64,000 bases of DNA from an uncultured Bacteroidales bacterium (GCA_963800585.1 CAWDBP010000008.1:262175-326174), one strand, 5' to 3'; counted from the first letter of the stretch, positions 2,380-56,933 are shown. Notes: generated from the sequence alone by a model not told the origin. Numbers and translations are program-made.

Positions 2380-3785
2380 TAAAACGAACAATGAAACAGA
2401 TAAATAAAATAAAAACAGTTAAGGTCTTGTTGCTCTTGCTGATGGCTGTTTTAATTTTAGCTTCGTGCAAAGTCACAAAGACCTATAAACGCCAGGATGG
2501 TTTAACAGATAACAAATTGTACCGTGATGTAATAACTGCTGATACTTCAACCATTGCTGATATTCCGTGGAAGAAGATGTTCAGTGATACATTGCTTCAA
2601 CACTTAATACAGGAGGGAGTTGACAAAAATCTTGATCTGAAGATTGCTGTGGCCCGCATAAAACAGGCAATGGCCAATGTGCGCCAAAGCAATGCGGCAT
2701 TTTTTCCCACTTTGGAGGTGCTTGCCAATGGCTCAGTTCAAAAGCTTGGCGATACTGGAGGTGTTACAGAATCTTACCAATTATACGGTAGTGCAAGCTG
2801 GGAAATTGATATCTGGGGTAAGCTGAAAAGCACAAAAAGGGCTGCATTGGCAGGCCTTCTGGAAAGCAATGCTTATAAAAAAGCCGTGCAAACACAATTG
2901 GTGTCAGATATCGCAACTGATTATTATGCATTACTGGCGTATGATGCACAGTTACAAGTAACAATTAAAACAGTCGAGAACAGGATGCAGGATGTAGAGA
3001 CCATGAAACTGCTTAAGGAAAGTGATGTAGTGACCGGGGCAGCCGTGGTACAAAGTGAGGCTAACCGTTATTCAGCTGAGGTAACTATACCGGATCTGAA
3101 ACAAAATATCCGCGAAACAGAAAATGCGTTGAGCATTCTGCTCGGCCGGGATCCGGGGAGCATTGCAAGGGATAGTCTTAAAAACCAGCAGGTTCGAAGT
3201 GATCTGCAAACGGGAGTGGCCGCACAGTTATTGGCCAACCGGCCAGATGTGCAGGAATCTGAATATCAGTTACAATATTATTTTGAATTGACCAATGTTG
3301 CCAGGACCTATTTTTATCCTTCATTGACGATTACGGCAGAGGGCGGCTTATCAAATGGGAATATTTCACAGTTTTTCAGTGCATCTTCTTTATTTGGAAA
3401 TATTGTTGGCGGACTGGTTCAGCCCATTCTTAACCATGGCCTGAACAAACAACGCATGTCTGTGGCCATGGCACTTGAGGAAGAATATCTTGCCACATTT
3501 AAAAAAGCACTTCTGAACGCAGGACAGGAAGTCTCAAATGCATTATTCGATTACCAGGTAGCGACGGATAAAATGAAGATCCGGTCGCAGCAGATTAACT
3601 TTCTGCAGAAATCGGTGGAGTTTACCAAGGAGCTGCTTAAATACACCGCCAATACCAACTATACAGATGTTCTTACATCTGAGCAAAGCTTATTAGCGGC
3701 GCAGTTGAACAGTATCGGCGACCAGGTTCAACAATTAAAGGCAATTGTAACTCTGTATCGGAGTTTAGGTGGCGGATGGAAATAA
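2376..3785 (+). CDS. RND efflux outer-membrane factor lipoprotein (NodT/TolC family)
   Basis: 469-aa ORF. Signal peptide ends in LILASC (lipobox-like). Internally duplicated TolC-like helical repeats and a C-terminal LYRSLGGGW typical of the NodT family. Translationally coupled to the pump gene. Confidence 0.85.
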   Translation: MIKRTMKQINKIKTVKVLLLLLMAVLILASCKVTKTYKRQDGLTDNKLYRDVITADTSTIADIPWKKMFSDTLLQHLIQEGVDKNLDLKIAVARIKQAMANVRQSNAAFFPTLEVLANGSVQKLGDTGGVTESYQLYGSASWEIDIWGKLKSTKRAALAGLLESNAYKKAVQTQLVSDIATDYYALLAYDAQLQVTIKTVENRMQDVETMKLLKESDVVTGAAVVQSEANRYSAEVTIPDLKQNIRETENALSILLGRDPGSIARDSLKNQQVRSDLQTGVAAQLLANRPDVQESEYQLQYYFELTNVARTYFYPSLTITAEGGLSNGNISQFFSASSLFGNIVGGLVQPILNHGLNKQRMSVAMALEEEYLATFKKALLNAGQEVSNALFDYQVATDKMKIRSQQINFLQKSVEFTKELLKYTANTNYTDVLTSEQSLLAAQLNSIGDQVQQLKAIVTLYRSLGGGWK

Positions 3786-3856
3786 AAAGTCATGATATTA
3801 TTCCTGCCCAGCCTATTATATTTGTCATCCTGGTATTTTCACCGCAAATATGTTTG

Positions 3857-3925
3857 AATATGTGAATCATGTAATTTTTTTCTGAAATTATGTAACAATT
3901 CATAAAATGCAGAATAGCATCTTTG
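3857..3925 (+). promoter_or_regulatory. Island promoter motif, copy 1 (upstream of kaiC)
   Basis: AATATGTGAATCATGTAAT-N15-TGTAACA-N24-TTTG, with a CATCTTTG -7-like box at 3918-3925. Lies 92 nt upstream of the kaiC ATG. Confidence 0.6.
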
Positions 3926-4017
3926 TTTTGTAATTTGGGAGGTTTGACAGAAATGCCCATTTTATCGAAAATTTATAGTTCTGCTTTCACAAAGAATCCG
4001 AAATTTTAAAGTTAAAT

Positions 4018-5751
4018 ATGAAGAAAGAAAAAAGTAAACCAGTAACTAAAAATCTTCACAAGACACCAACAGGAATCCAGGGATTCGATGAAATAACTGG
4101 TGGTGGACTGCCAACAGGCAGACCAACACTCCTCTGTGGTGGTGCAGGATGCGGAAAGACGCTTTTTGGAATGGAGTTTCTTGTCAGGGGTGCAACACAG
4201 TTTAACGAACCAGGTGTGTTTATGTCATTCGAAGAAACGAATGAAGAATTGATCAAAAATGTTACTTCACTCGGTTTTGATCTGGAAGACCTTGTCAAAA
4301 ATAAAAAACTTTCACTTGACCATGTCCATATTGAACGCAGTGAAATAGAAGAAACCGGCGAATACGATCTGCAAGGTTTATTCATACGACTTGGTTATGC
4401 AATTGATTCTATCGGGGCCAAACGTGTTGTATTAGACACGATTGAGTCACTATTTGCAGGATTGCCAAACCAACTGATCTTACGCGCTGAACTGCGGCGT
4501 TTATTTCACTGGCTGAAAGATAAAGGCGTTACTGCAATCATAACAGGTGAACGTGGAGAAGAAACATTAACCCGGCAAGGTTTGGAAGAATATGTTTCAG
4601 ATTGTGTTATTATGCTCGACCACCGGGTAACCGATCAGACTTCTACACGTCGTTTACGGGTTGTCAAGTATCGTGGTTCAATGCACGGTACGAATGAGTA
4701 TCCATTTCTGATTGATGAAAATGGTTTTTCAATATTACCTATTACTTCATTAGGATTAAAACATAAAATATCGAATGAAAGGATCTCAAGTGGTATAACT
4801 GCACTTGATAAAATGCTTGAAGGAAAAGGTTATTTCCGCGGAAGCACAGTACTTGTTTCCGGTACTGCCGGAGTGGGGAAAACAAGCGTAGCAGCTCACT
4901 TTGCAGAAGCGGCATGCAAACGTGGTGAACGTGTTCTCTTTTTCTGTTTCGAAGAATCTCCGGAACAGTTAATGCGTAATATGCGTTCTATTGGTATAAA
5001 ATTAGAGACCTGGGTGCAGAAAGGACTATTACAATTTCATGCAATTCGTCCAACATTCTATGGCCTGGAAATGCATCTGGCTGTAACTCACAAAGCTGTT
5101 AATAGTTTCAAACCTCATATTGTCATCCTGGATCCGATAAATACCTTCGTCATTGGTGATAAAGATTACGAAGTAAAAATGATGTTAATGCGTATTGTCG
5201 ATTATCTTAAGTCGAATCAAATAACAGCATTGTTTACCAGCTTAACTGCAAACAACAGTGCTCTAGAGAGTACGGATGTTGCAATATCATCACTAATCGA
5301 TACGTGGTTATTACTTCGTGATATTGAATTAAGCGGTGAACGAAACAGGGGAATGTATGTTCTTAAATCACGCGGTATGGCTCACTCTAACCAAATCCGC
5401 GAATTCATTTTAACAAACCATGGCGTTGAATTACGTGAGGCTTATATCGGTGCAAGCGGAGTTTTAACGGGCTCAGCACGTGTTGCACAGGAAGCAAATG
5501 AAAATGCCGGATTGTTGATTCGTAAAAACGATATCGAACAAAAAAAACGTGAAATAGAACGAAAACGTAAAGCATTGGAAACTCAGATTGCTACTATGCA
5601 AATCGATTTTGAACTGGAAGAGGCTGAAGCTGTCAAAATGATTGAGACAGAAAAGGATACGATTAAACGACTGGAACAAGATAAAATAGAAATGGCGGAA
5701 AGCCGGAAAGCCGGCCTAAAAAAGATTATGACTAACAAGGTGAAAAAATAA
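4018..5751 (+). CDS. kaiC: Circadian-clock-type ATPase KaiC homologue (double RecA-like domain) with an extended C-terminal coiled-coil tail
   Basis: Two Walker A motifs (GGAGCGKT, GTAGVGKT), each followed by a paired-Glu catalytic motif (SFEETNEE, CFEESPEQ). STDVAISSLIDT aligns with the S. elongatus ITDSHISTITDT phosphosite segment. The last ~70 aa are charged and heptad-like. Confidence 0.9.
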   Translation: MKKEKSKPVTKNLHKTPTGIQGFDEITGGGLPTGRPTLLCGGAGCGKTLFGMEFLVRGATQFNEPGVFMSFEETNEELIKNVTSLGFDLEDLVKNKKLSLDHVHIERSEIEETGEYDLQGLFIRLGYAIDSIGAKRVVLDTIESLFAGLPNQLILRAELRRLFHWLKDKGVTAIITGERGEETLTRQGLEEYVSDCVIMLDHRVTDQTSTRRLRVVKYRGSMHGTNEYPFLIDENGFSILPITSLGLKHKISNERISSGITALDKMLEGKGYFRGSTVLVSGTAGVGKTSVAAHFAEAACKRGERVLFFCFEESPEQLMRNMRSIGIKLETWVQKGLLQFHAIRPTFYGLEMHLAVTHKAVNSFKPHIVILDPINTFVIGDKDYEVKMMLMRIVDYLKSNQITALFTSLTANNSALESTDVAISSLIDTWLLLRDIELSGERNRGMYVLKSRGMAHSNQIREFILTNHGVELREAYIGASGVLTGSARVAQEANENAGLLIRKNDIEQKKREIERKRKALETQIATMQIDFELEEAEAVKMIETEKDTIKRLEQDKIEMAESRKAGLKKIMTNKVKK

Positions 5752-5766
5752 TTAAAAGAATACCCG

Positions 5767-6108
5767 ATGAGACCAAAAAAAGAGAACTCAGGAAAAAGCA
5801 GTAAAGCAGAAAGACCGGTTAAAGCTTTAGATGATAAATGGATACTCCGATTATATGTTGCAGGTCAAACACCAAAAGCCCTCACTGCATTTACAAACCT
5901 TAAGAAGATATGTGAGGACCAATTAAAAGGTAAATACTCTATCGAAGTAATTGATCTTTTGATAAATCCACAATTAGGTGCCGAGGACCAGATTCTTGCC
6001 TTACCAACATTAGTCAGAAAATTACCGGTGCCCGTTAGAAAGATAATCGGCGATCTCTCAAATACAGAACGTGTTCTTGTTGGATTGGATTTATTGCCTG
6101 TCAGCTGA
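5767..6108 (+). CDS. kaiB: KaiB homologue, copy 1 (thioredoxin-like fold family)
   Basis: [24 protein letters not shown]...[34 protein letters not shown] matches the KaiB signature along its whole length. Has a ~25-aa basic N-terminal extension. Confidence 0.9.
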
Positions 6109-6138
6109 TTTATAAGTACACTGTTTATCAAAAATATT

Positions 6139-6486
6139 ATGAAAGAGAATAAATCAAAGAAAAAAAACTCAACAGAGAAATTCGATCTGAAAGTATCCGG
6201 ATTAAGCAAAGACAAATATATATTGCGTTTATATATAACCGGTGTAACGACCCGGTCAGTCCTGGCAATAACGAATCTGAAAAAGATTTGCGAAGAATAT
6301 CTTGAAGGACGATACGAATTGGAGGTGATCGACTTGTATCAAAAACCATGTCTTGCCAAAGATGAACAGATCATCGCAGCTCCGACCTTGATTAAAAAAC
6401 TGCCGCTTCCTTTCCGACGTATCATCGGAGATATGTCAAACAAGGAAAAAGTCCTTCTTGGATTGGATCTGAAAAGGATAGAGTGA
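6139..6486 (+). CDS. kaiB: KaiB homologue, copy 2 (diverged paralogue)
   Basis: [24 protein letters not shown]...[34 protein letters not shown]. Same architecture as copy 1. Confidence 0.9.
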
Positions 6487-6531
6487 CTTTGTTATTTACA
6501 GAACATTTAACCCGTTTGATTTGTAATACTG

Positions 6532-7251
6532 ATGTCCATGACCAAAACGATAGAACAACTCATAATTGAAAATGAGGAATTACGTTCCCGCCTGTCTGAA
6601 ACTGAAGAAATCCTTGTAGCAATCCGAAACGGAGAAATGGATGCTATTGTGGTTTCCGGAAAGAAAGGAGAACAAGTCTATTCGATCAGTTCTGCTGAAA
6701 CGCCATATCGTACTTTTGTAGAAGAGATGAATGAAGGAGCACTTACTCTTACTAAAGATGGAATTATTATCTATTGCAATAAAAAATTTGCTAAACTTGT
6801 AAACGACCCTATTGAACGTGTGATAGGTTCAGCCTTTAAGCACTTCCTCGCCCCGGGTGACCAATCAAAATTCAAGCACCTGCTTTCCCGTCTGACTAAG
6901 AAGAAGAGCGATGTCCTGATCATATCCTTAACCGGCTCATTGTTTCTGAAACTATCCTTTCTCCTTCTTCCTTCTTATCTGCAAGGTGATCATTGCATAG
7001 TTATAGCAACCGACATTTCAGCAATAAAGTTGGTAGAGAAACAACTTCTTGAACTACAACATTTATTGGAAAAGAAATTAGATGTCATTGAGCGCTTGCG
7101 ATTGCAACTTATTGATAAAAAGATTGATAATGAAGTTGAAATAACTAAAATAAAAAAGACAAATAAAGAACTGGTCAGGGAAATCACAAAACATAAACTA
7201 ATTGAAACAAAATTAAAGCATGAACTAAATCATAAGAAGGTAACCAATTGA
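6532..7251 (+). CDS. Stand-alone PAS-domain protein flanked by coiled coils (sensor-kinase-like N-terminus without DHp/ATPase domains)
   Basis: N-terminal EELRSRLSETEEILVAIRNGEMDAIVV motif followed by a PAS-like core (YRTFVEEMNEGALTLTKDGIIIYCNKKFAKLV...). The ~80-aa C-terminus is a K/E/L-rich coiled coil. No H-box or ATP-binding motifs seen. Confidence 0.7.
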   Translation: MSMTKTIEQLIIENEELRSRLSETEEILVAIRNGEMDAIVVSGKKGEQVYSISSAETPYRTFVEEMNEGALTLTKDGIIIYCNKKFAKLVNDPIERVIGSAFKHFLAPGDQSKFKHLLSRLTKKKSDVLIISLTGSLFLKLSFLLLPSYLQGDHCIVIATDISAIKLVEKQLLELQHLLEKKLDVIERLRLQLIDKKIDNEVEITKIKKTNKELVREITKHKLIETKLKHELNHKKVTN

Positions 7252-7264
7252 AAATGTAATATAA

Positions 7265-7750
7265 ATGAAAATAACTAAAAAGAAGAAAGTACTGATTGCA
7301 TTGGATTATAATCCAACTGCACAAAAAATTGCAGAAGTTGGGTTTTCATTTGCTAAAGCCATGGGCGCAGAAGTTATCCTGATGCATGTAATAACTGACC
7401 TGGTATATTATTCTTCATCGGAATTTTCTCCGATAATGGGATATACAGGCTACCTCGAGGCTGGTCCATTTCAATTAGACAATGCTGATGGACTGAAAAA
7501 TGCAGCTCAACATTTTCTTGATAAAACGAAACAACACCTTGGTGATAAAAACATCCAAACGTTGGTTAAAGATGGCGATTTTGCGGATTCAATATTAAAG
7601 ACAGCAAAAGAATTACATGCCGATATTATTGTCATGGGATCTCACAGCAGGAGATGGTTGGAAAATATAGTCATGGGAAGTGTTACGGAAGAAGTGTTAC
7701 ATCATACCTCTATTCCGCTTTTTATCATTCCAACAAAAAAACATAGCTAG
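7265..7750 (+). CDS. Universal stress protein (UspA family)
   Basis: 161 aa. KVLIALDYN..., ILMHV, and C-terminal GSHSRRWLENIVMGSVTEEVLHHTSIPLFIIP are typical USP motifs. Confidence 0.85.
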   Translation: MKITKKKKVLIALDYNPTAQKIAEVGFSFAKAMGAEVILMHVITDLVYYSSSEFSPIMGYTGYLEAGPFQLDNADGLKNAAQHFLDKTKQHLGDKNIQTLVKDGDFADSILKTAKELHADIIVMGSHSRRWLENIVMGSVTEEVLHHTSIPLFIIPTKKHS

Positions 7751-7821
7751 TCTGGATTTTAAAGCAGAACCTGTGTTGATAGTCTGCTGGAATTTGTAAG
7801 GAATCATTATCAACTGGTACA

Positions 7822-7890
7822 AATGTGGGAATAATGTAAATTATTGTTGCAGTTGTGTAACACGCGATGTAAAAAAGGTGCCGAACTTTG
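7822..7890 (+). promoter_or_regulatory. Island promoter motif, copy 2 (upstream of the acidic protein/OYE unit)
   Basis: AATGTGGGAATAATGTAAA-N15-TGTAACAC-N24-TTTG (GAACTTTG box). Lies 86 nt upstream of the ATG at 7977. Confidence 0.6.
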
Positions 7891-7976
7891 TTTTATTGTG
7901 AAAATTCAATTACAACGGTAAAATTCATGATGTATGAAAATACAGTTTCAATATTCTCTTTCTAAAGTTAAGGCAT

Positions 7977-8336
7977 ATGAAAGATAAAGGTGATAATAAT
8001 AAGCTGCCTGTTTGGAAGGCAGGGGACAAGAAGAAAGACAATCTTCAGGGGTATCCATTATATCCTGCCAGCGAAGATGTTTATAATGAATCTCATATTA
8101 AAAAAAATATAGATCCTGAAGATGTTTCCCGAAAAAAAGATTCGATTGAGAAATACGAAGGTGAAAAAGATAATGAGAAAGATTTTATGGATGATGTCTC
8201 AGGCAGTGATTTGGATGTTCCTGGCTCAGAATTGGATGATAATCAGGAGAATATAGGGAGTGAGGATGAGGAGAATAATTATTACAGTATTGGTGGAGAC
8301 GATCATGAAGACCTCGATGAGGATAAAGGAGATTGA
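7977..8336 (+). CDS. Highly acidic (D/E-rich) hypothetical protein
   Basis: 119-aa ORF directly downstream of motif copy 2. Low-complexity acidic C-terminal half. No recognisable family. Confidence 0.5.
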   Translation: MKDKGDNNKLPVWKAGDKKKDNLQGYPLYPASEDVYNESHIKKNIDPEDVSRKKDSIEKYEGEKDNEKDFMDDVSGSDLDVPGSELDDNQENIGSEDEENNYYSIGGDDHEDLDEDKGD

Positions 8337-8337
8337 C

Positions 8338-9444
8338 ATGCATCAAACTGAACATATGAAAGATCTAAAATTATTTACACCAACAATGGTTGGAACTGTC
8401 GGAGTGAAAAATCGTATCGTCATGTCGCCAATGACAAGATGCAGGGCGATTGGAAATATGCCAAATGAACTGATGGCAGAATATTACAAGCAACGTTCCG
8501 GAGCCGGTTTGATTTTAACGGAAGGTACATCTCCATCGCCCAATGGACTCGGTTATGCACGGATACCAGGAATTTTTAACCAACAGCAAGTGGCAGGCTG
8601 GAAAATGACAACCTTGGCTGTTCACAAAGGTGGTGGAAAAATATTTGTTCAACTTATGCATACTGGAAGGATAAGCCATTCCCTCAATATGCCTGAAGGA
8701 TCTCAAATACTAGCGCCTTCGGCGGTAAAAGCTGCTGGACAGATGTGGACCGACGCAAAAATGTTACAGGATTTTCCGGTTCCAAAAGAGATGAGTACCG
8801 AAGATCTTCTGCATACTAAAACAGAATTTGTTAACGCAGCATTAAATGCTATTGATGCCGGGTTTGATGGTGTGGAATTGCATGGGGCAAACGGTTATCT
8901 GCTCGAAGAGTTCCTTTCACCAGTCAGCAATATCCGGAATGATAATTATGGCGGGAGTATTGAAAACCGTTGCAAGTTTGTTCTTGAAGTAGTAATTGCA
9001 GTAGCTGAAACCATTGGTAAGGGGAAGACCGGAATTCGTTTATCTCCTTATGGTGTGGCTAGTGATATGCCATATTACCCCGAGATCGACACTACATATC
9101 TATACCTATCGGAACAAATAAACCGACTAGGAATAGCTTACATCCATCTTGTAGATCATTCTGCAATGGGAGCCCCCGTGGTACCGATAGAACTTAAGAA
9201 ACGCATCCGGGATGTTTTCCAAAATACCATAATTCTCTCTGGTGGTTATGACTTGCAAAGGGCAGAAGCCGATATTGAAAGCGGATTGGGTGATCTCATC
9301 GCATTCGGTCGTCCGTTTATCAACAATCCCGATTTTGTTGAAAGGTTGAAAAATGACTCGACTTTATCAACCGATCTTCATATGGATTTATTTTATACCT
9401 CGGATGAAAAAGGATATACCGATTATCCGGTTTATAAAGCCTGA
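8338..9444 (+). CDS. Old-Yellow-Enzyme family NADH:flavin oxidoreductase (alkene reductase)
   Basis: IVMSPMTRCRA, QLMHTGR, GFDGVELHGANGYLLEEFL and FGRPFINNPDF motifs. I place the start at the ATG at 8338, because the 8260 start in the ORF track overlaps the upstream gene. Confidence 0.85.
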   Translation: MHQTEHMKDLKLFTPTMVGTVGVKNRIVMSPMTRCRAIGNMPNELMAEYYKQRSGAGLILTEGTSPSPNGLGYARIPGIFNQQQVAGWKMTTLAVHKGGGKIFVQLMHTGRISHSLNMPEGSQILAPSAVKAAGQMWTDAKMLQDFPVPKEMSTEDLLHTKTEFVNAALNAIDAGFDGVELHGANGYLLEEFLSPVSNIRNDNYGGSIENRCKFVLEVVIAVAETIGKGKTGIRLSPYGVASDMPYYPEIDTTYLYLSEQINRLGIAYIHLVDHSAMGAPVVPIELKKRIRDVFQNTIILSGGYDLQRAEADIESGLGDLIAFGRPFINNPDFVERLKNDSTLSTDLHMDLFYTSDEKGYTDYPVYKA

Positions 9445-19072: not shown

Positions 19073-20329
19073 TTAATGTGGAGGATTCTCTTCTTTGGTT
19101 TGAGAAGGATTTTCATGTTGTGGTTGTGATTGCTGCTGTCTGGGTGGTTGAGCGTTTTGTTGTTGCTGATGCTTGGCAGGTTGAGCATTGTGTTGTTGCT
19201 GTTGTTGCTTGGCAGGTTGAGCATTATGTTGCTGCTGTTGTGGTTGCTGTTGTTGCTTGGCAGGTTGAGCATTATGTTGCTGCTGTTGTGGTTGCTGTTG
19301 TTGCTTGGCAGGTTGAGCATTATGTTGCTGCTGTTGTGGTTGCTGCTGCTTAGCTGGTTGTACGGTGTGTTGCGGTTGCGTTTGTTGCTGCTTAGCTGGT
19401 TGTACGGTATGTTGCGGTTGCGTTTGTTGCTGCTTAGCTGGTTGAACGGTATGTTGCGGTGCCGTTTGTTGCTTAGCAGGTTGATTTACTTTTTGTGAAG
19501 GAGTTGCACCAGTTCTTTGTGCAGGAGGTTTCACATCTTTTAAACTTGCCACTTTGGAAGGGGCTGGTTTCTGTCCGTTGGAGCTCGTTTTTTGTACCTG
19601 AGGTCTGTATATTTGTAGCTGATTGTTACTCAAACTCTGGCCAGGTTTACTGCTTTCTTTAATTGCAACGGCAGTAACTGGTCTTCCACCCACTTTTTCT
19701 ACTTCCGCTTTCGCGGGACCTGCATTGTATGTTACATTGCGCTGTTTATCAATGCGGGTATCGTTAATGACTGTTGAACTCTTATAGATTGCAACATTGT
19801 TTGATCGGTTGATATAGTAATTATTGAGGTCTCTTCTTCCAAAATCCCTGTTTCTTACAAATGTCCACCGATCAGAAGGTACATTATAGGAATTACTGTA
19901 AGCTTCATTGATGCTGACCCCAGGTCCTATGGGTGCCCATCCATAATAATCCCCTGATCTTCTCCAGGTAACCCATCCGGGCCCCCATTCATTATCCGGA
20001 ACCCAAATCGGGCCATACTTTTGATCAGTGTACCAGCGACCGTAATGAAAAGGTGCCCATCCCCACGGGTAATTAGAAACCCATGTCCACCCTTCATCAG
20101 TGTATACCCAATGCCCGTTTGTGGAATAAGGAGAAAACCCGGGAGCCACATCAGGTACCCAAACATACCCGTATTCGGGATTGTCGAACCAGGTTCCATA
20201 GGGACTTAAATTATCATAAAATACCTGGAAATTCACGGGTCCACCTTGTGCGGATACTTTTTGTGGTGTTACCCATGTACCAACACAGAAAATAATAAGA
20301 ATCGAAAGAAAGAGCTTTTTGGTTTTCAT
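19073..20329 (-). CDS. Secreted protein with a W/Y/G-rich (DUF6600-like, YxWGxW-type) N-terminal domain and a Gln-rich repeat tail
   Basis: Signal peptide, then FYDNLSPYGTWFDNPEYGYVWVP...YPWGWAPFHYGRWY...GWAPIGP. The C-terminus has tandem HTVQPAKQQQTQPQ and QHNAQPAKQQQQPQQQ units. Confidence 0.6.
   Translation of the reverse strand: MKTKKLFLSILIIFCVGTWVTPQKVSAQGGPVNFQVFYDNLSPYGTWFDNPEYGYVWVPDVAPGFSPYSTNGHWVYTDEGWTWVSNYPWGWAPFHYGRWYTDQKYGPIWVPDNEWGPGWVTWRRSGDYYGWAPIGPGVSINEAYSNSYNVPSDRWTFVRNRDFGRRDLNNYYINRSNNVAIYKSSTVINDTRIDKQRNVTYNAGPAKAEVEKVGGRPVTAVAIKESSKPGQSLSNNQLQIYRPQVQKTSSNGQKPAPSKVASLKDVKPPAQRTGATPSQKVNQPAKQQTAPQHTVQPAKQQQTQPQHTVQPAKQQQTQPQHTVQPAKQQQPQQQQHNAQPAKQQQQPQQQQHNAQPAKQQQQPQQQQHNAQPAKQQQQQHNAQPAKHQQQQNAQPPRQQQSQPQHENPSQTKEENPPH
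19171..19480 (-). repeat. In-frame coding tandem repeats (48-bp and 42-bp units) encoding the Gln-rich tail
   Basis: 19207-19254 and 19255-19302 are identical 48-mers and the third copy differs near its end. Three 42-bp units follow at about 19348-19470. Confidence 0.85.
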
Positions 20330-42363: not shown

Positions 42364-42460
42364 CTATTATCGCCTTTCTTTATTTTTTCTCTTTTGGGTT
42401 TAACAGGAAATCCTCTTTCACAGATAAATCGCATAGTCCCTAAGATCGCAAAAAATGGAC

Positions 42461-42504
42461 TTAGCGTTTTTTAGCGTCTTAGCGTCTTCGCGGTAAAAAA
42501 AAAA
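42461..42504 (+). repeat. 44-bp interspersed repeat, copy 1 (TTAGCGTTTTTTAGCGTCTTAGCGTCTTCGCGGT + A-run)
   Basis: Near-identical to 52062-52104. Contains internal TTAGCGTC reiterations. Confidence 0.8.
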
Positions 42505-45270: not shown

Positions 45271-45375
45271 TAACTCGTAACACCCAACACCTAAAACTTA
45301 ACACTTAAAACTTAACACTTAACACTTTACACCCAACCCCTATTACCCAACACCTATTACCCAATACCCAATTAC
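45271..45375 (+). repeat. Low-complexity C/A/T tract (100 nt without a single G on the + strand) made of short degenerate tandem units
   Basis: CTTAACACTTAAAA / CTTAACACTTAACAC and CTATTACCCAACAC x2 units. No G occurs between 45278 and 45377. Confidence 0.85.
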
Positions 45376-48265
45376 ATGAACGGATTCTCGAGAAAACTGC
45401 AGATATCTTTACAAGAACTATGGAGATAAGATCTCTGAACTCTGCATTGTGCTTCCTAACCGCAGAGCAGGGCTGTTTCTTCAAAAATACCTCGGAAAAA
45501 GCATTGGAAAGACCATATGGTCACCCGCCATTTTTTCAATTGAAGATTTTATAATCAACATCTCAGGTCTCCGGATTTGCGATCCTGTGCAGGTATTGTT
45601 TGAACTATACGAGATCCACAAAGGGCTGGAAGGTCAAAATGCACAGCCTTTCGATGAATTTACGAGCTGGGCTCAGCAGTTGCTGGGAGATTTTAATGAG
45701 ATCGACAGTTACCTGGTCGATGCCTCGGATCTGTTTACTTTTCTGAATGAAGCTAAGGCACTCTCCATATGGAACCTGGATAATAAGCCCCTCACTGATT
45801 TTGAAAAGCAATACCTGCGTTTTTTTAATTCTCTGTATACCTACCATGAGCAATTGGAGATCAAGGCTCCTCGCTTCCAACCTTGCCTACCCTGGTCTTC
45901 TGTTCAGAAATACTGCCGGACAAATGTAATACGCTGTCTGAAAAGATGCAATGGGAGAAGATCATATTTGCCGGATTTAATGCATTGACGAAGGCAGAGG
46001 AAGCTATAATTGACAACCTTATTGCCTCAGGAAAAGCAGAAATGTTGTGGGATGCCGATGCTTATTACATGGAGGATGAAAAACAGGAAGCCGGTTTCTT
46101 TCTGAGGAAGTGGAAGAGGAAATGGAAAAACCAGCCCTTTAACTGGATCGAAAAGGATTTTGCCGCCTCACAGCAAAGATCAATATTATCGGAGTTCCTT
46201 TACATGTGGGACAGGCCAAGCTCTGCGGTGAATTATTAAACGATGACCTCCTGAACGATCAACCTTCTGAGAATACTGCCGTGGTAATTATGGATGAACA
46301 GCTTCTTTTACCGGTACTAAACTCACTTCCTCCGGTAGTTAAAGAATTGAATATTACGATGGGGCTCCCACTCCGGCAGACACCTGTATACGACCTCTTC
46401 GATACAATATTCCGGATGCACGAAAATACTCCAGGTTTGAAAGATCAGGAACCCCGGTCAAAGAAATGTTTTATTACCGTGACATACTGAAGGTCCTTCA
46501 ACATCCATATACAGCTCAAATGGCAGGAACGCTGCTAAAAGGAAATACCTTTGTTCTGGAAGAACTGATTGGTGAGGTACGTACCGGAAGCCGTGTTTTT
46601 CTTGGCAAAGAGGAATTGATCCGGGCTGGAACTGACATCTTTTCCGGCAGCCTTGGTTTCCTGGAACCGGTGTTTGATTCATGGAAGGATCCCCTGAAAA
46701 CGATTGATTCCCTTCGGAAGATAATTGAATATTTACGGAATGGGTTTGTCTCAGGGGATAAAGAAAAAGAATCGTATTCAGTTCGTATAGAAATAGAATT
46801 CCTTTATGCATTTTCAAAGATCATCTACAGGCTTTCGACCCTGATTGAAAAATATGACGCAATCAAAGACCTAAAGATATTTCATTCCCTGTTCAATCAG
46901 CTTGCAGGTTTAACATCGTTGCCCTTCTATGGCGAGCCATTGCGGGGATTGCAAATGATGGGAATGCTTGAGACACGAACCCTCGATTTTGATAACCTGA
47001 TCCTTCTCTCTGTAAACGAAGATCTGATTCCCAGCGGAAAAACCTCGCCATCCTTCATTCCCTTCGATATACGCCGTCATTTTCATCTTCCTACCTACCA
47101 GCATAAAAATTCAATCTATGCCTACCATTTCTATCGCCTGATACAGCGGGCAAAACAGGTCTATCTCCTGTACAACACCGAAAGTGACGAACTGGGAGGA
47201 GGTGAAAAAAGCAGGTTCATAAAGCAGATCCAGCAGGAACTAAGAATTTACAATCCCAACATCAGTATCGGGGATGAGATACTGGTTACCTCTCCATTGA
47301 AAAGTTTTTCTCTTCCCGACATCAGGGTTCCCAAAACAGACGGTGTCGCGGAGATGCTCATGACGAAAGCGGAAACCGGTTTCTCACCCACTGCACTGAA
47401 CAACTATATCCAGTGCACGCTGAAGTTTTATTTTGAGGACCTGCTCGGATTACGGGAAGAAAAAGAGCTGGAAGAAACCATTGATTCACAGATCCTTGGA
47501 CTTGCAATTCATGAAACTCTTGAGAAACTTTACCGGCCTTCCCAGGGAGTGCTTCTGACACAGGAAGCTATTGATGGAATGATCCCGCTTTACCAGGCAA
47601 TACTTGACGATGCATTTAAGAAAAAGTTCAAAGGATCAGATTTAGCCTATGGGAAAAATCTGTTGCTCGTGAAGGTAGCCGGTATCCTGGTAAAGAAATT
47701 CCTTGAAAAAGAAAAAAAACTGATCAGCGACTTCAAAACAGAGGGCAAAACAATCATAGTGACCTTCCTGGAAAAATTCCAGACAGGAAAGATCGGGATC
47801 AGGTTAGGAGATCAGGACCTGGAAGTTAAACTAAAAGGGTTTGTCGACCGCATAGATAAAATAGGGGAGGAGTGGAGAATTATCGATTATAAAAGCGGCA
47901 GTGTCGCTTCATCAGATCTGAAGTTTAAGGAGTGGGGTGAACTTAAAGAAGATTCTGACCACGCAAAGGCTTTTCAGCTTTATATGTATGCTTTGCTTTT
48001 CAGAAATGAAAGAAGTGAAAAACCGCTGAAGATCAGGGCAGGTATCATATCCTTACGAAAGCTGACCGGGGGATTTATGCAGGTGCCTTCACTATCTTCT
48101 GAAGAGAAAAAAGAGATTTCTATTAGTGAGGACGATCTGGCTTCGTTTGAGAATGTACTAAAAGAGATCCTCGAAGAAATTTATGACTTCGACATTCCAT
48201 TTATGCAGACAGAAGATGTGAAACGATGCGAAAACTGCGATTTTATCAACCTTTGCGAACGGTAA
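45376..48265 (+). pseudogene. AddB-like PD-(D/E)XK nuclease family protein, broken by about 5-6 frameshifts in its first ~1.1 kb
   Basis: Fragments 45376-45429, 45449-45988, 45883-46239, 46206-46490 and 46466-48265 read as one protein (...ISELCIVLPNRRAGLFLQKYL...). The intact C-terminus has IDRIDKIGEEWRIIDYKSG and CENCDFINLC. Confidence 0.7.
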
Positions 48266-51958: not shown

Positions 51959-52061
51959 CTTTATGGTCGTCAAAATTTTTTAATTATTTCCGTCAAGGGG
52001 CTGACTATAAAGTTCTTTCTCATCGCGATGACACCAGGACGCTATTAATTTAGTAATTGAT

Positions 52062-52104
52062 TTAGCGTTTTTTTGCGTCTTAGCGTCTTCGCGGTGAAAA
52101 AAAA
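52062..52104 (+). repeat. 44-bp interspersed repeat, copy 2
   Basis: TTAGCGTTTTTTTGCGTCTTAGCGTCTTCGCGGTG + A-run. Compare 42461-42504. Confidence 0.8.
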
Positions 52105-54624: not shown

Positions 54625-56059
54625 ATGAAACGTTTGATTGGATTTTTTCTGGTAGCTCTGGCCGGTGGCGCTATTGCCTTAGGCGCGTTACAAATTAATG
54701 GAAAAGAAACAACATTATTATCCTTATCCGTCCAGGCAGCAATTATCATTACGACCGGTGAATTATATTCCTGGAACCCCTTTTAATGAGCCTGGATTTT
54801 GAATCTGCCGCCGCAATATCTGTACCTGCAGTTGTTCATATAAAGACTGAGTTTTCAGCAGAAAAGTAATGTATATGATGATTTTTTCAATTTTTTCAAT
54901 TTCGGACAGGGAATGCCTAACCAGGCGATAGAAGCCATGGGTTCAGGCGTGATCATTGATGCAGATGGTTATATTGTTACCAATAATCATGTTGTGCAGG
55001 ATGCAGACAATATCACGGTAACACTTAACGACAAACGTGTTTATAAAGCGACTATCATCGGATGCCGATGCAGGTAGCGACCTTGCCCTGATCAAGATTG
55101 ATGAAAAAGGACTTCCGTTTCTTACCTATGGGAATTCTGATGATGCAAGAATTGGAGAGTGGGTGCTGGCAGTTGGCAATCCTTTTAATTTAACATCAAC
55201 GGTCACAGCAGGAATTGTGAGTGCCAAAGCCCGTGACATTAACATCCTGGGTTCTCAGGGTGCAGTTGAATCATTTATCCAGACCGATGCTGCCGTTAAC
55301 CCAGGTAACAGCGGCGGCGCGCTTGTGAACCTTAAAGGGGAACTTATCGGTATCAATGCCGCCATTGCTTCAGGAACAGGAAATTATGTAGGGATATTCC
55401 TTTGCAATCCCTTCAAACATTGTTAAAAAGGTCGTGGATGACTTCATGAAATTCGGGAAGATCCAGAAGTGGACTATCTCGGGATACGATATAAGGAGAT
55501 TGACGACCAGTTTGCAAAAGATAATGATCTGCCAGCTATAAAAGGCGTTTATGTTCAGGAGGTCATTGAAGGTGGGGCAGCAGAAAAAGCAGGAGTAAAA
55601 AAAGGTGATGTCATATTGCAGATGCAGGGTATGCCTGTAGACAGTAAATCAGAACTTATCGAGATCATCAACCAGCATAATCCGGGTGACAAGATCAATC
55701 TTACTGTTTTCAGGGATGGCAAACAACTGGATGTTCCAGTGACTCTACTAAGTGAAAATGAGAACCTGGCTTTTACAAAAGATGATCAGATTATTATTCA
55801 TGGTGCTACCTTCCAGCACATTAATGATAGTGAGAAACATCGGTATGGTATCGATGACGGTTTTAAAATCGTTCATCTCGATAACGGTTTACTGAGAAAT
55901 TCGGGTATCAGGGAGGGTTTTATAGTAGTTGCAGTTGATAAACAACCTATCCATTCTACACAGGACCTCAAGGAAGCATTTACATCGAAGAGAGGAGGGG
56001 TTCTCATCGAAGGTGTTTACCCCAATGGCATGAGGGCGTATTATGGCATAGGAATATAA
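54625..56059 (+). pseudogene. htrA: HtrA/DegP/DegQ-type periplasmic serine protease with a PDZ region, broken by about 6 frameshifts
   Basis: Pieces in three frames read MKRLIGFFLVALAGGAIALGA..., [62 protein letters not shown] (catalytic Ser) and the PDZ-like segment 55469-56059. Confidence 0.75.
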
Positions 56060-56069
56060 GGAGTAAAAC

Positions 56070-56933
56070 ATGAGACAATTAAAAATATCGAAATCAATAA
56101 CCAATCGGGAAACCGCTTCTCTTGATAAATATCTTCAGGATATTGGCAAGGAAGAGTTGATCACGACTGATGAAGAAGTTCAGCTTGCACAAAAGATTCG
56201 TGGGGGTGATCAGCAAGCCCTGGAAAAACTCTGCAAGGCTAACCTGCGATTCGTCGTATCAGTTGCCAAGCAATACCAGAACCAGGGCCTCAGCCTACCC
56301 GACCTGATCAATGAAGGAAACCTGGGCTTGATTAAAGCGGCTCGCCGTTTTGATGAAACGCGTGGATTTAAATTTATATCCTATGCAGTTTGGTGGATCA
56401 GGCAATCGATCTTGCAGGCATTGGCCGAACAATCCAGGATAGTCAGGTTGCCATTGAACCAGGTGGGATCCTTAAGCAAGATGAACAAGGTCTCATCACG
56501 CCTTGAACAAAGGTTCGAAAGACCTCCCTCAGCCGATGAGATCGCAACAGAGATGGAACTCCCCCAGCATAAGGTTGAAGAGACACTCCGGATCTCCACA
56601 AGGACAATCTCAATGGATGCCCCGATCGATCAGGATGATGATCTGAGGTTTCTCGATGTATTTGTATCAGAAGATGCACCGGGAACAGATGAAGACCTTA
56701 TCAGGGAATCGCTCGCAAGAGAAGTCCAGCGGTCACTTTCCACGCTGGCCGAAAAAGAACGGGAGATCATCAACCTCTTCTATGGGATCGGCGTCCCGCA
56801 CAATTATACCCTTGAAGAGATTGGGGATATGTTCGATCTTACAAGGGAAAGAGTGCGGCAGATCAAGGAGAAAGCCCTTCGCAGGTTGAAACATTCTTCA
56901 CGTAGTAAGTTACTCAAAGCGTATCTGGGCTGA
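56070..56933 (+). CDS. rpoD: Primary sigma factor (Bacteroidota-type short RpoD)
   Basis: 287 aa. [37 protein letters not shown] (region 2) and [28 protein letters not shown] (region 4). Confidence 0.9.

Follow-up and report, generated by a model that had tools for sequence, protein, structure and literature searches.

What does a KaiBC pair do in a bacterium that does not live by light? The role of KaiBC outside phototrophs is an open question in the field, and it is raised here by a kaiC-kaiB-kaiB-PAS-usp operon at positions 4018-7750 of a 64,000-nucleotide (nt) stretch of DNA from an uncultured Bacteroidales bacterium (GCA_963800585.1, CAWDBP010000008.1:262175-326174). This whole stretch is called the window below, and coordinates are counted from its first letter. 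By analogy with the best characterized relative, the product of the locus is probably a KaiBC phosphorylation switch that needs no KaiA, of the KaiC2 / Rhodobacter sphaeroides type, and it would work as an hourglass gated by energy charge or stress. No new type of machine is involved; comparison of the locus with its relatives gives testable handles on the question.

The five open reading frames (ORFs) all lie on the + strand: kaiC (4018-5751, 577 amino acids (aa)), kaiB-1 (5767-6108, 113 aa), kaiB-2 (6139-6486, 115 aa), a gene encoding a PAS/coiled-coil protein (6532-7251, 239 aa) and usp, of the universal stress protein family (7265-7750, 161 aa). They are separated by 15, 30, 45 and 13 bp, in agreement with the initial annotation, made from the DNA alone, which had described five co-directional genes with gaps of 13-45 bp. 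Proteins identical to those encoded here are found on metagenome contigs (the longest of 492 kb) under the public names 'circadian clock protein KaiC/KaiB'.

For comparison, a scan of one genome per species gave 204 relatives, of which the 80 best went into the analysis. Those at 75-94% identity, the nearest, are without exception Bacteroidales-type metagenome-assembled genomes (MAGs) from peat, fen, lake and groundwater samples, habitats being those of the record titles. The Bacteroidales clade referred to below comprises loci L001-L023. At 60-72% identity follow Chloroflexota, Ignavibacteriota, Acidobacteriota, Myxococcota and Planctomycetota, together with cultured Pedobacter, Mucilaginibacter, Spirosoma and Dyadobacter. 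In this survey of kaiC neighbourhoods the order kaiC, kaiB, kaiB, PAS gene recurs in about 67 of the 80 loci. The two-KaiB KaiC2 module is thus the commonest form among these relatives, in Bacteroidota, Chloroflexota, Acidobacteriota, Myxococcota and others, and it occurs in the culturable genera Pedobacter, Mucilaginibacter and Spirosoma.

KaiC and its C-terminal extension

The 577-aa ORF matches the Pfam KaiC family PF06745 twice (2.7e-106) and scores 751.9 bits with the NCBIfam equivalog NF006799 (cut-off 408), while the cyanobacterial equivalog TIGR02655 gives 367 bits for a cut-off of 546. Its best match in the PDB is 8DBA, the KaiC dodecamer of R. sphaeroides, at 680 bits (residues 13-563 on chain residues 5-554, tail included), as against 347 bits for KaiC of Synechococcus elongatus; the corresponding identities are 53.6% and 38%. 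The S. elongatus reference sequence is 100% identical to PDB 1U9I. The protein therefore falls inside the KaiC family, with the tailed R. sphaeroides type, and not outside the KaiC clade. A RadA/Sms-like or generic KaiC-like ATPase is ruled out: RadA, DnaB and RecA models match weakly, the RadA model reaching 49 bits for a cut-off of 403, and the NF006799 score lies 340 bits above its own threshold. Judged from its sequence, the 577-aa protein is a genuine KaiC, of the KaiC2 / R. sphaeroides-type subgroup.

The active sites follow this assignment. Each half of the protein carries one Walker A motif (GGAGCGKT, 41-48, and GTAGVGKT, 282-289) and one catalytic pair (E72/E73 and E312/E313). In the motif STDVAISS, T419, S424 and S425 stand at the aligned positions of S. 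elongatus T426, S431 and T432, and S424/S425 at those of S413/S414 in R. sphaeroides KaiC. Alignment thus bears out what the initial annotation had noted, namely both Walker A motifs, both EE pairs, ISS in place of IST and a threonine at the position equivalent to T426. K47, E72, E312 and S425 are present in all 78 KaiC homologues compared, E313 in 77 and S424 in 76. The tryptophan that follows the phosphosite is also kept in the window protein; a role in dephosphorylation has been assigned to it in R. sphaeroides KaiC (Pitsawong et al. 2023, PMC10076222).

The most distinctive part of the protein is its C-terminal extension (residues 495-577, encoded at 5500-5748, + strand), a charged, proline-free, heptad-periodic helix by prediction. 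Alignment to S. elongatus KaiC stops at residue 486 (493 in the reference), leaving 91 residues here and 26 there, or about 65 extra. The initial annotation had noted some 60 extra, strongly charged and heptad-like residues, a description that holds: the tail is 47% charged, contains no proline and keeps hydrophobic residues at the heptad a/d positions 506, 513, 520, 524, 527, 531, 538, 541/542, 552 and 559. Past the GSAR motif, all 78 homologues continue for at least 77 further residues. Several lines point to coiled-coil propensity. The tail aligns gaplessly with the crystallographic coiled coil of 8DBA; the Fourier maximum of the hydrophobicity profile over the 78 homologues falls at 3.5 residues, a power reached by 0.35% of shuffles; and an AlphaFold2 (AF2) model from the single sequence draws residues 489-577 as one uninterrupted helix with predicted local distance difference test (pLDDT) values of 92-97, such models leaning towards helices.

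Pitsawong et al. (PMC10076222) found such a tail to be typical of kaiC2-subgroup proteins, which carry two serine sites. In R. sphaeroides it forms a 12-helix bundle joining two hexamers and frees phosphorylation from the need for KaiA; extension and KaiB binding to CI together give an hourglass driven by the ATP:ADP ratio. The statement in the initial annotation, that tailed KaiC homologues act without KaiA as KaiBC hourglass timers, is therefore published knowledge for that species. The system of R. sphaeroides KD131 (PDB 8DBA, 8FWI and 8FWJ) is also the closest to ours in other respects. Its KaiC aligns end to end with the window protein, tail included, and both share the SS phosphosite with the tryptophan, Walker A and EE residues in both domains, a heptad-periodic extension of about 50-65 aa, the lack of KaiA and a PAS-type signalling gene after kaiB. 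They differ in that R. sphaeroides has one kaiB where the window has two, that the PAS gene here is without kinase domains and that a usp is appended here. Moreover, the two tails share just 20% identity and the window protein ends with 14 extra basic residues.

Further likenesses extend to the operon. Ma et al. 2016 (PMC4794148) described the kaiC-kaiB-PAS/HK operon (HK, histidine kinase) of Rhodopseudomonas palustris and R. sphaeroides, and its order is found here: kaiC, kaiB and a PAS-domain gene on one strand with short gaps. The R. palustris operon resembles that of the window in its kaiC, kaiB and PAS signalling gene under one promoter and in its KaiC2-type protein; it differs by its single kaiB and its complete PAS-histidine kinase. 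Its kaiC confers a fitness effect under light-dark cycles in a phototroph. Schmelling et al. (PMC5520375) reported a group of Bacteroidetes encoding only KaiB2/KaiC2-like proteins. The tailed, SS-site, KaiA-independent KaiC2 type, its occurrence in Bacteroidetes and the kaiC-kaiB-PAS/HK operon are thus all already published, and since databases already name the proteins KaiC and KaiB, the core of the operon is of a known kind.

On the model of R. sphaeroides, KaiC would oligomerize via the coiled coil at its C-terminus, most likely into a double hexamer joined tail to tail. With the A-loop region kept exposed by this coiled coil, CII would be able to phosphorylate S425 and S424 without KaiA. 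At high ADP, KaiB would bind the CI ring, with stimulation of ATP hydrolysis and dephosphorylation as the expected outcome. The phosphorylation state would then follow the cellular energy charge with a built-in delay, as an hourglass and not as a free-running clock. The day/night ATP:ADP cue proposed for Rhodobacter does not obviously apply to a non-phototrophic Bacteroidales host. Record titles place the relatives in peat, fen and groundwater, as MAGs of chemoheterotrophic Bacteroidales, which favours a cue from energy status or stress over light.

The two KaiBs, the PAS protein and usp

The initial annotation had listed two KaiB paralogues, a PAS-only protein and a universal stress protein downstream of kaiC. 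All three families are indeed found; the status of the last two genes has to be revised. Both KaiB ORFs pass the Pfam KaiB model PF07689 (kaiB-1 1.7e-25, kaiB-2 3.2e-25; 89.0 and 88.1 bits for a cut-off of 27). With the NCBIfam equivalog NF006798 (cut-off 110), kaiB-1 passes at 114.2 bits and kaiB-2 stays below at 99.3, and both are below the cyanobacterial equivalog TIGR02654 (107 and 94 bits for a cut-off of 145). KaiB of R. sphaeroides (8FWJ) is the best PDB match of both.

The two copies are 60% identical to each other, and R. sphaeroides KaiB resembles the first-position type more closely (63% identity, as against 51% to the second). When 142 KaiBs were placed in a neighbour-joining tree, the 67 second-position copies all grouped in a single clade, from which every one of the 67 first-position copies was excluded. 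On these sequences, the duplication is therefore ancient and the order of the copies fixed, kaiB-2 belonging to a separate old lineage. Literature searches for tandem kaiB returned unrelated uses of 'two kaiB' and no mention of a two-KaiB module, and those on KaiC in named Bacteroidota genera returned nothing specific. As a separate observation, both KaiBs start with a lysine-rich N-terminal extension of about 22-28 aa (5767-5835 and 6139-6213), absent from KaiB of R. sphaeroides; tblastn coverage suggests that members of the Bacteroidales clade have kept it and that most KaiBs from elsewhere lack it.

The fourth ORF matches only PAS models in Pfam (PAS_9, 1.3e-7). Databases place its start two codons later (237 aa), and the start codon is probably at 6538. 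From its N-terminus, the protein has a helix, a strand motif AIRxGExDAIVV and a PAS domain, and about 75 aa at its C-terminus make up another helix; it lacks the HisKA and HATPase_c domains of a histidine kinase and ends in a coiled coil. Its first 165 residues (heptad helix, AIRxGExDAIVV motif, PAS) are common to the post-kaiB gene of nearly all loci. What follows them varies: the gene encodes 231-242 aa in the Bacteroidales clade only and 417-1755 aa elsewhere. Among ten long homologues scanned, six carry PAS and HisKA-HATPase, one adds a receiver domain, one combines GAF with HD_5, one GAF with GGDEF-EAL, and one is a multi-PAS protein. The 'PAS-only' protein is thus, as far as sequence comparison tells, the N-terminal input module of a kai-linked histidine kinase whose kinase part is missing, a state confined to the Bacteroidales clade. 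A single input module joined to interchangeable outputs argues that this module may be the part that receives the Kai signal, a candidate Kai-docking domain. As such, the coiled-coil-plus-PAS module, which in different phyla is joined to kinase, HD-GYP-type or GGDEF-EAL outputs, would be a candidate for the non-cyanobacterial counterpart of the input domains of SasA and CikA.

In L016 and L019, two groundwater MAGs of the clade, the end of the PAS gene, stop codon included, shares 4 nt with the start of a hybrid kinase gene (HisKA-HATPase-REC), an arrangement that is a split version of sensor and kinase. The N-terminus of this kinase (L016 11133-13217, L019 11161-13056) is made of more than ten 21-residue repeats (EKEKRAAELvIANKELlFQNk). 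When the window was searched by tblastn with the AraC-type regulator (see below) and the hybrid kinase of relatives, no match at E 0.01 or better was obtained.

Two other views of the PAS gene were rejected. It is not a pseudogene: the short form, of 213-244 aa in all 120 clusters listed of 886 matches, has a mean column identity of 80% with invariant residues along the C-terminal coil. Nor is it a LOV-type PAS, the cysteine of its YCN motif not being conserved in the long homologues. A functional analogy exists with KidA of S. elongatus, a kinase-less PAS accessory protein that binds KaiB, the likeness residing in the PAS fold; according to PMC9478674, its PAS domains bind KaiB and tune the Kai oscillator. 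KidA differs in being a large multi-PAS protein whose gene lies away from kaiBC. In the window, the PAS module would couple to KaiB/KaiC, and the clade protein may act as an adaptor, its state being passed on in trans via the conserved C-terminal coiled coil.

The last gene, usp, belongs to Pfam PF00582 (5.8e-29, 101.9 bits); the region that corresponds to the ATP-binding motif of the nucleotide-binding subclass (G-2x-G-9x-G(S/T)) reads GSHS-RRWLENIVM-GS, with serine for the second glycine. It follows the PAS gene, 13 bp downstream, only in L001 and L002, which carry identical copies of these genes, and it is absent in a 92%-identical relative. Usp as a core part of the module was consequently rejected: by this distribution it is a late, lineage-specific addition to the operon.

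The kaiC promoter and its motif regulon

The initial annotation had pointed out that the kaiC promoter carries a motif shared with other genes nearby, the operon being either a member of the corresponding regulon or its upstream controller. This island motif (TGTGnGAATnATGTAA-N16-TGTAA) has 12 matches in the window for 0.04 expected by chance, all between 3.8 and 29.6 kb, and downstream of every copy, at constant spacing, stands (C/T)AnCTTTG. The -7 box of Bacteroidetes sigma-A promoters has the consensus TAnnTTTG, and the downstream element, which fits it, can thus be read as a -7 box. Copy 1, upstream of kaiC (3859-3895, + strand), shows one mismatch to the pattern and is in register with the other 11 copies. 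It comprises three boxes, ATGTGAAT, ATGTAAT and ATGTAAC, the last two 21 bp apart, and 21 nt downstream of the last one lies the Bacteroidetes-type -7 box CATCTTTG (3918-3925, + strand), whose position implies a 5' untranslated region of about 85-90 nt for kaiC. The presence of the motif in this promoter is thereby upheld, and it is presumed to be an activator site overlapping the -35 region. The next copy (7824-7860, + strand), in the promoter of a following unit made of an acidic 119-aa ORF and an OYE flavin oxidoreductase gene, marks the right-hand boundary of the kai operon.

Among the 22 clade loci, 14 have the same motif in the 600 nt preceding kaiC, as against none of 57 others; from the local motif density about one would be expected. 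This conservation supports membership: on the sequences compared, the kai operon appears to be a conserved member of a clade-specific motif regulon. Transcription would thus start from a tandem-motif promoter common to about 12 nearby envelope, lipid and stress genes. Behind the other copies are found genes for an OYE reductase, an ice-binding-like T9SS protein, MlaEFD, PAP2, DUF6600, PepSY-like and DUF6599 proteins, a B12 radical-SAM enzyme and several products that match no Pfam family. The motif-led units also contain genes for DUF3943, DUF748/AsmA-like, Nramp, a sulfatase-family enzyme, a lipid kinase and MscS. In L004, L005 and L023, island genes directly adjoin kaiC.

The 12 copies (3859-29614) mark out an island, about 26 kb long, of genes for envelope, lipid and stress functions. 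In L001 (666-3883), to the left of the window start, more copies precede an RND efflux operon and an ice-binding-like T9SS gene, so the island extends past the window. One of the island genes, that of the DUF6600 protein (19073-20329, minus strand), contains tandem repeats at 19130-19484 with units of 33-84 nt, each divisible by three, and up to 99% matching, giving a repetitive protein region; an island motif copy lies in its promoter.

A candidate for the factor that reads the motif comes from the relatives. Of the 19 clade loci for which flanking genes were inspected, 6 (L006, L007, L013, L017, L020 and L023) have an AraC-family gene of 186 aa next to the kai operon or within it. In metagenome loci (L083-L162), 50 of 77 copies of this AraC-type gene have their stop codon in the first motif box, in the context ...ATGTG-TGA-ATnATGTAAC..., and 13 more have the motif within 200 nt. 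The protein combines an N-terminal HMA-like fold bearing (C/S)xxC with a C-terminal HTH_18 domain. AraC/XylS activators typically bind a tandem pair of sites, each of about 17 bp, with a spacing of 21 bp and an overlap with the -35 region. Behind the AraC-linked motif promoter come small cupins (17 of 62), YtxH-like and small membrane proteins, but also the B12 radical-SAM enzyme, kaiC, or a second AraC paralogue followed by a hybrid kinase. From these gene arrangements, the AraC-type protein is the best candidate for the factor reading the motif. A defined motif shared with envelope and stress genes, together with a candidate regulator, provides a concrete output to measure.

Could KaiBC then stand above this regulon, the motif before kaiC being a feedback site, as in the control of cyanobacterial kaiBC by RpaA? 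The conservation of the motif upstream of kaiC in the clade, the AraC-type gene beside or inside some kai operons, the overlap of its stop codon with the motif and the island genes neighbouring kaiC would all fit such a controller. Yet a motif in its own promoter shows target status only, and most regulator genes and motifs are located away from kai: among 57 regulator genes with enough downstream sequence, kaiC comes next in 3. Moreover, no regulator, kinase or receiver gene was found in the window, and contact between the PAS protein and a transcription factor is conjecture. We therefore regard control of the island by KaiBC as rather unlikely. A fuller scenario, in which a KaiBC hourglass has been rewired in dark-living fermentative Bacteroidales of wetlands and groundwater, with sensing of energy charge in place of daylight, two specialised KaiBs and a kinase-less PAS/coiled-coil adaptor acting on an AraC-type activator that gates the envelope/lipid/stress regulon including its own promoter, is speculative and more doubtful still.

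Alternatives to a phosphorylation switch, and other features of the window

The description of the locus as a KaiBC-type timer or stress switch, proposed in the initial annotation, is supported, KaiC lying inside its family, the tail having coiled-coil propensity and both KaiB ORFs being recognised by the KaiB model. Several observations nevertheless weigh against our more precise proposal of a KaiA-independent, R. sphaeroides-type phosphorylation switch. Dodecamer formation, autokinase activity and the KaiB effect are attributed to the window proteins wholly by homology. Taken by itself, the tail of the window KaiC shows no significant periodicity (its power is attained by 9% of shuffles), its identity to the R. 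sphaeroides tail is low, as given above, and the bias of single-sequence AF2 models towards helices tends to weaken the evidence for a tail helix. The AF2 model of the PAS protein, from an alignment of 31 sequences, is confident for helices 5-30 and 161-236 and poor overall (mean pLDDT 55.6). In 8 of the 22 clade loci, no recognisable motif lies within 600 nt upstream of kaiC. Finally, no output domain can be recognised in the PAS protein, and the 64-kb window yielded no gene for a kinase, a receiver or a DNA-binding protein as a partner; the output path of the module is therefore a guess.

The search for partners relied on Pfam scans of submitted window ORFs of at least 110 aa, nested and overlapping ones being left out. 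Among them no KaiA, histidine-kinase, receiver or other transcription-factor domain was found, and the sole regulatory match is a sigma-70 gene (56070-56933). This agrees with the earlier remark that the window contains no KaiA, SasA, CikA or RpaA-like gene.

Alternatively, the locus could be a stress-resistance module without timing, in which KaiC would be an ATPase/kinase that raises tolerance when the regulon is induced. The precedent is the KaiBC pair of Legionella pneumophila, whose stress role is summarised by Schmelling et al. (PMC5520375), and which is likewise a KaiA-less KaiC2/KaiB2 pair in a non-phototroph, the link with stress being made in the window by the accompanying stress genes. 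Co-regulation with usp, OYE, Mla transporter, PAP2, MscS and Nramp genes behind the island motif goes in this direction, as do the YtxH-like, cupin and small membrane protein genes that the motif precedes elsewhere. The Legionella pair is a more distant relative, however: its KaiB (4KUN) scores 56-64 bits with the window KaiBs, where that of R. sphaeroides scores 98-108, and the make-up of the operon differs. In addition, the phosphosite, catalytic residues and tail are all conserved, which argues for a phosphorylation cycle under selection. Such a module is in fact compatible with the switch, an energy-charge phosphorylation switch being the way in which it would sense stress; taken as a function without timing, we consider it distinctly unlikely.

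A self-sustained, free-running circadian oscillator, with KaiB-2 and/or the PAS protein supplying a KaiA-like function in the manner of KaiA3/KaiC3 in Synechocystis, is far less probable. The anciently conserved extra KaiB and the conserved accessory protein could lend themselves to it; PAS domains can tune Kai oscillators, as KidA does (PMC9478674), and non-canonical KaiA-like partners such as KaiA3 exist. In the nearest characterised system, the hourglass depends on an ATP:ADP cue from outside (PMC10076222), and the coiled-coil tail would by analogy lead to constitutive phosphorylation, with no KaiA-gated slow step. Hosts are non-phototrophic and, by record titles, many come from dark, subsurface habitats. 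The locus also lacks the marks of the canonical KaiABC oscillator. It shares with S. elongatus PCC 7942 the double-domain KaiC fold, the catalytic residues, the phosphosite position and a KaiB of the same family, but it differs by the low KaiC identity, by SS in place of ST and by the coiled-coil tail. Scores for TIGR02655 (367 bits for 546) and TIGR02654 are both below cut-off, and KaiA, SasA, CikA and RpaA, all present in S. elongatus, were not found in the window scans. That the PAS gene is a functionless, decaying truncated kinase, or the KaiC-like gene a generic RadA/KaiC-like ATPase, is hardly credible: the missing HisKA and HATPase domains and the weak RadA, DnaB and RecA matches stand against the conserved short PAS form and the wide equivalog margin described above.

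Scans of the whole window with Rfam and for tRNA gave no matches, hence no riboswitch in the kaiC leader of about 90 nt. Consensus terminator and sigma-70 promoter scans of 3700-8400, which do not model Bacteroidetes promoters, yielded nothing above shuffled expectation. Elsewhere in the window, an HtrA-like protease (Trypsin_2 and PDZ; 54625-56059) is split over at least four ORFs in different frames, as a pseudogene or through assembly frameshifts. A 50-nt element (AATGGACTTAGCGTTTTTTAGCGTCTTAGCGTCTTCGCGGTAAAAAAAAA) is present in two copies, 92% identical (42454-42503 and 52055-52104), each between long ORFs. Lastly, tandem repeats of 7/14 nt (TAACACC; AACACTTAAAACTT) occupy 45272-45368, just upstream of an ORF without family match (45449-45988).

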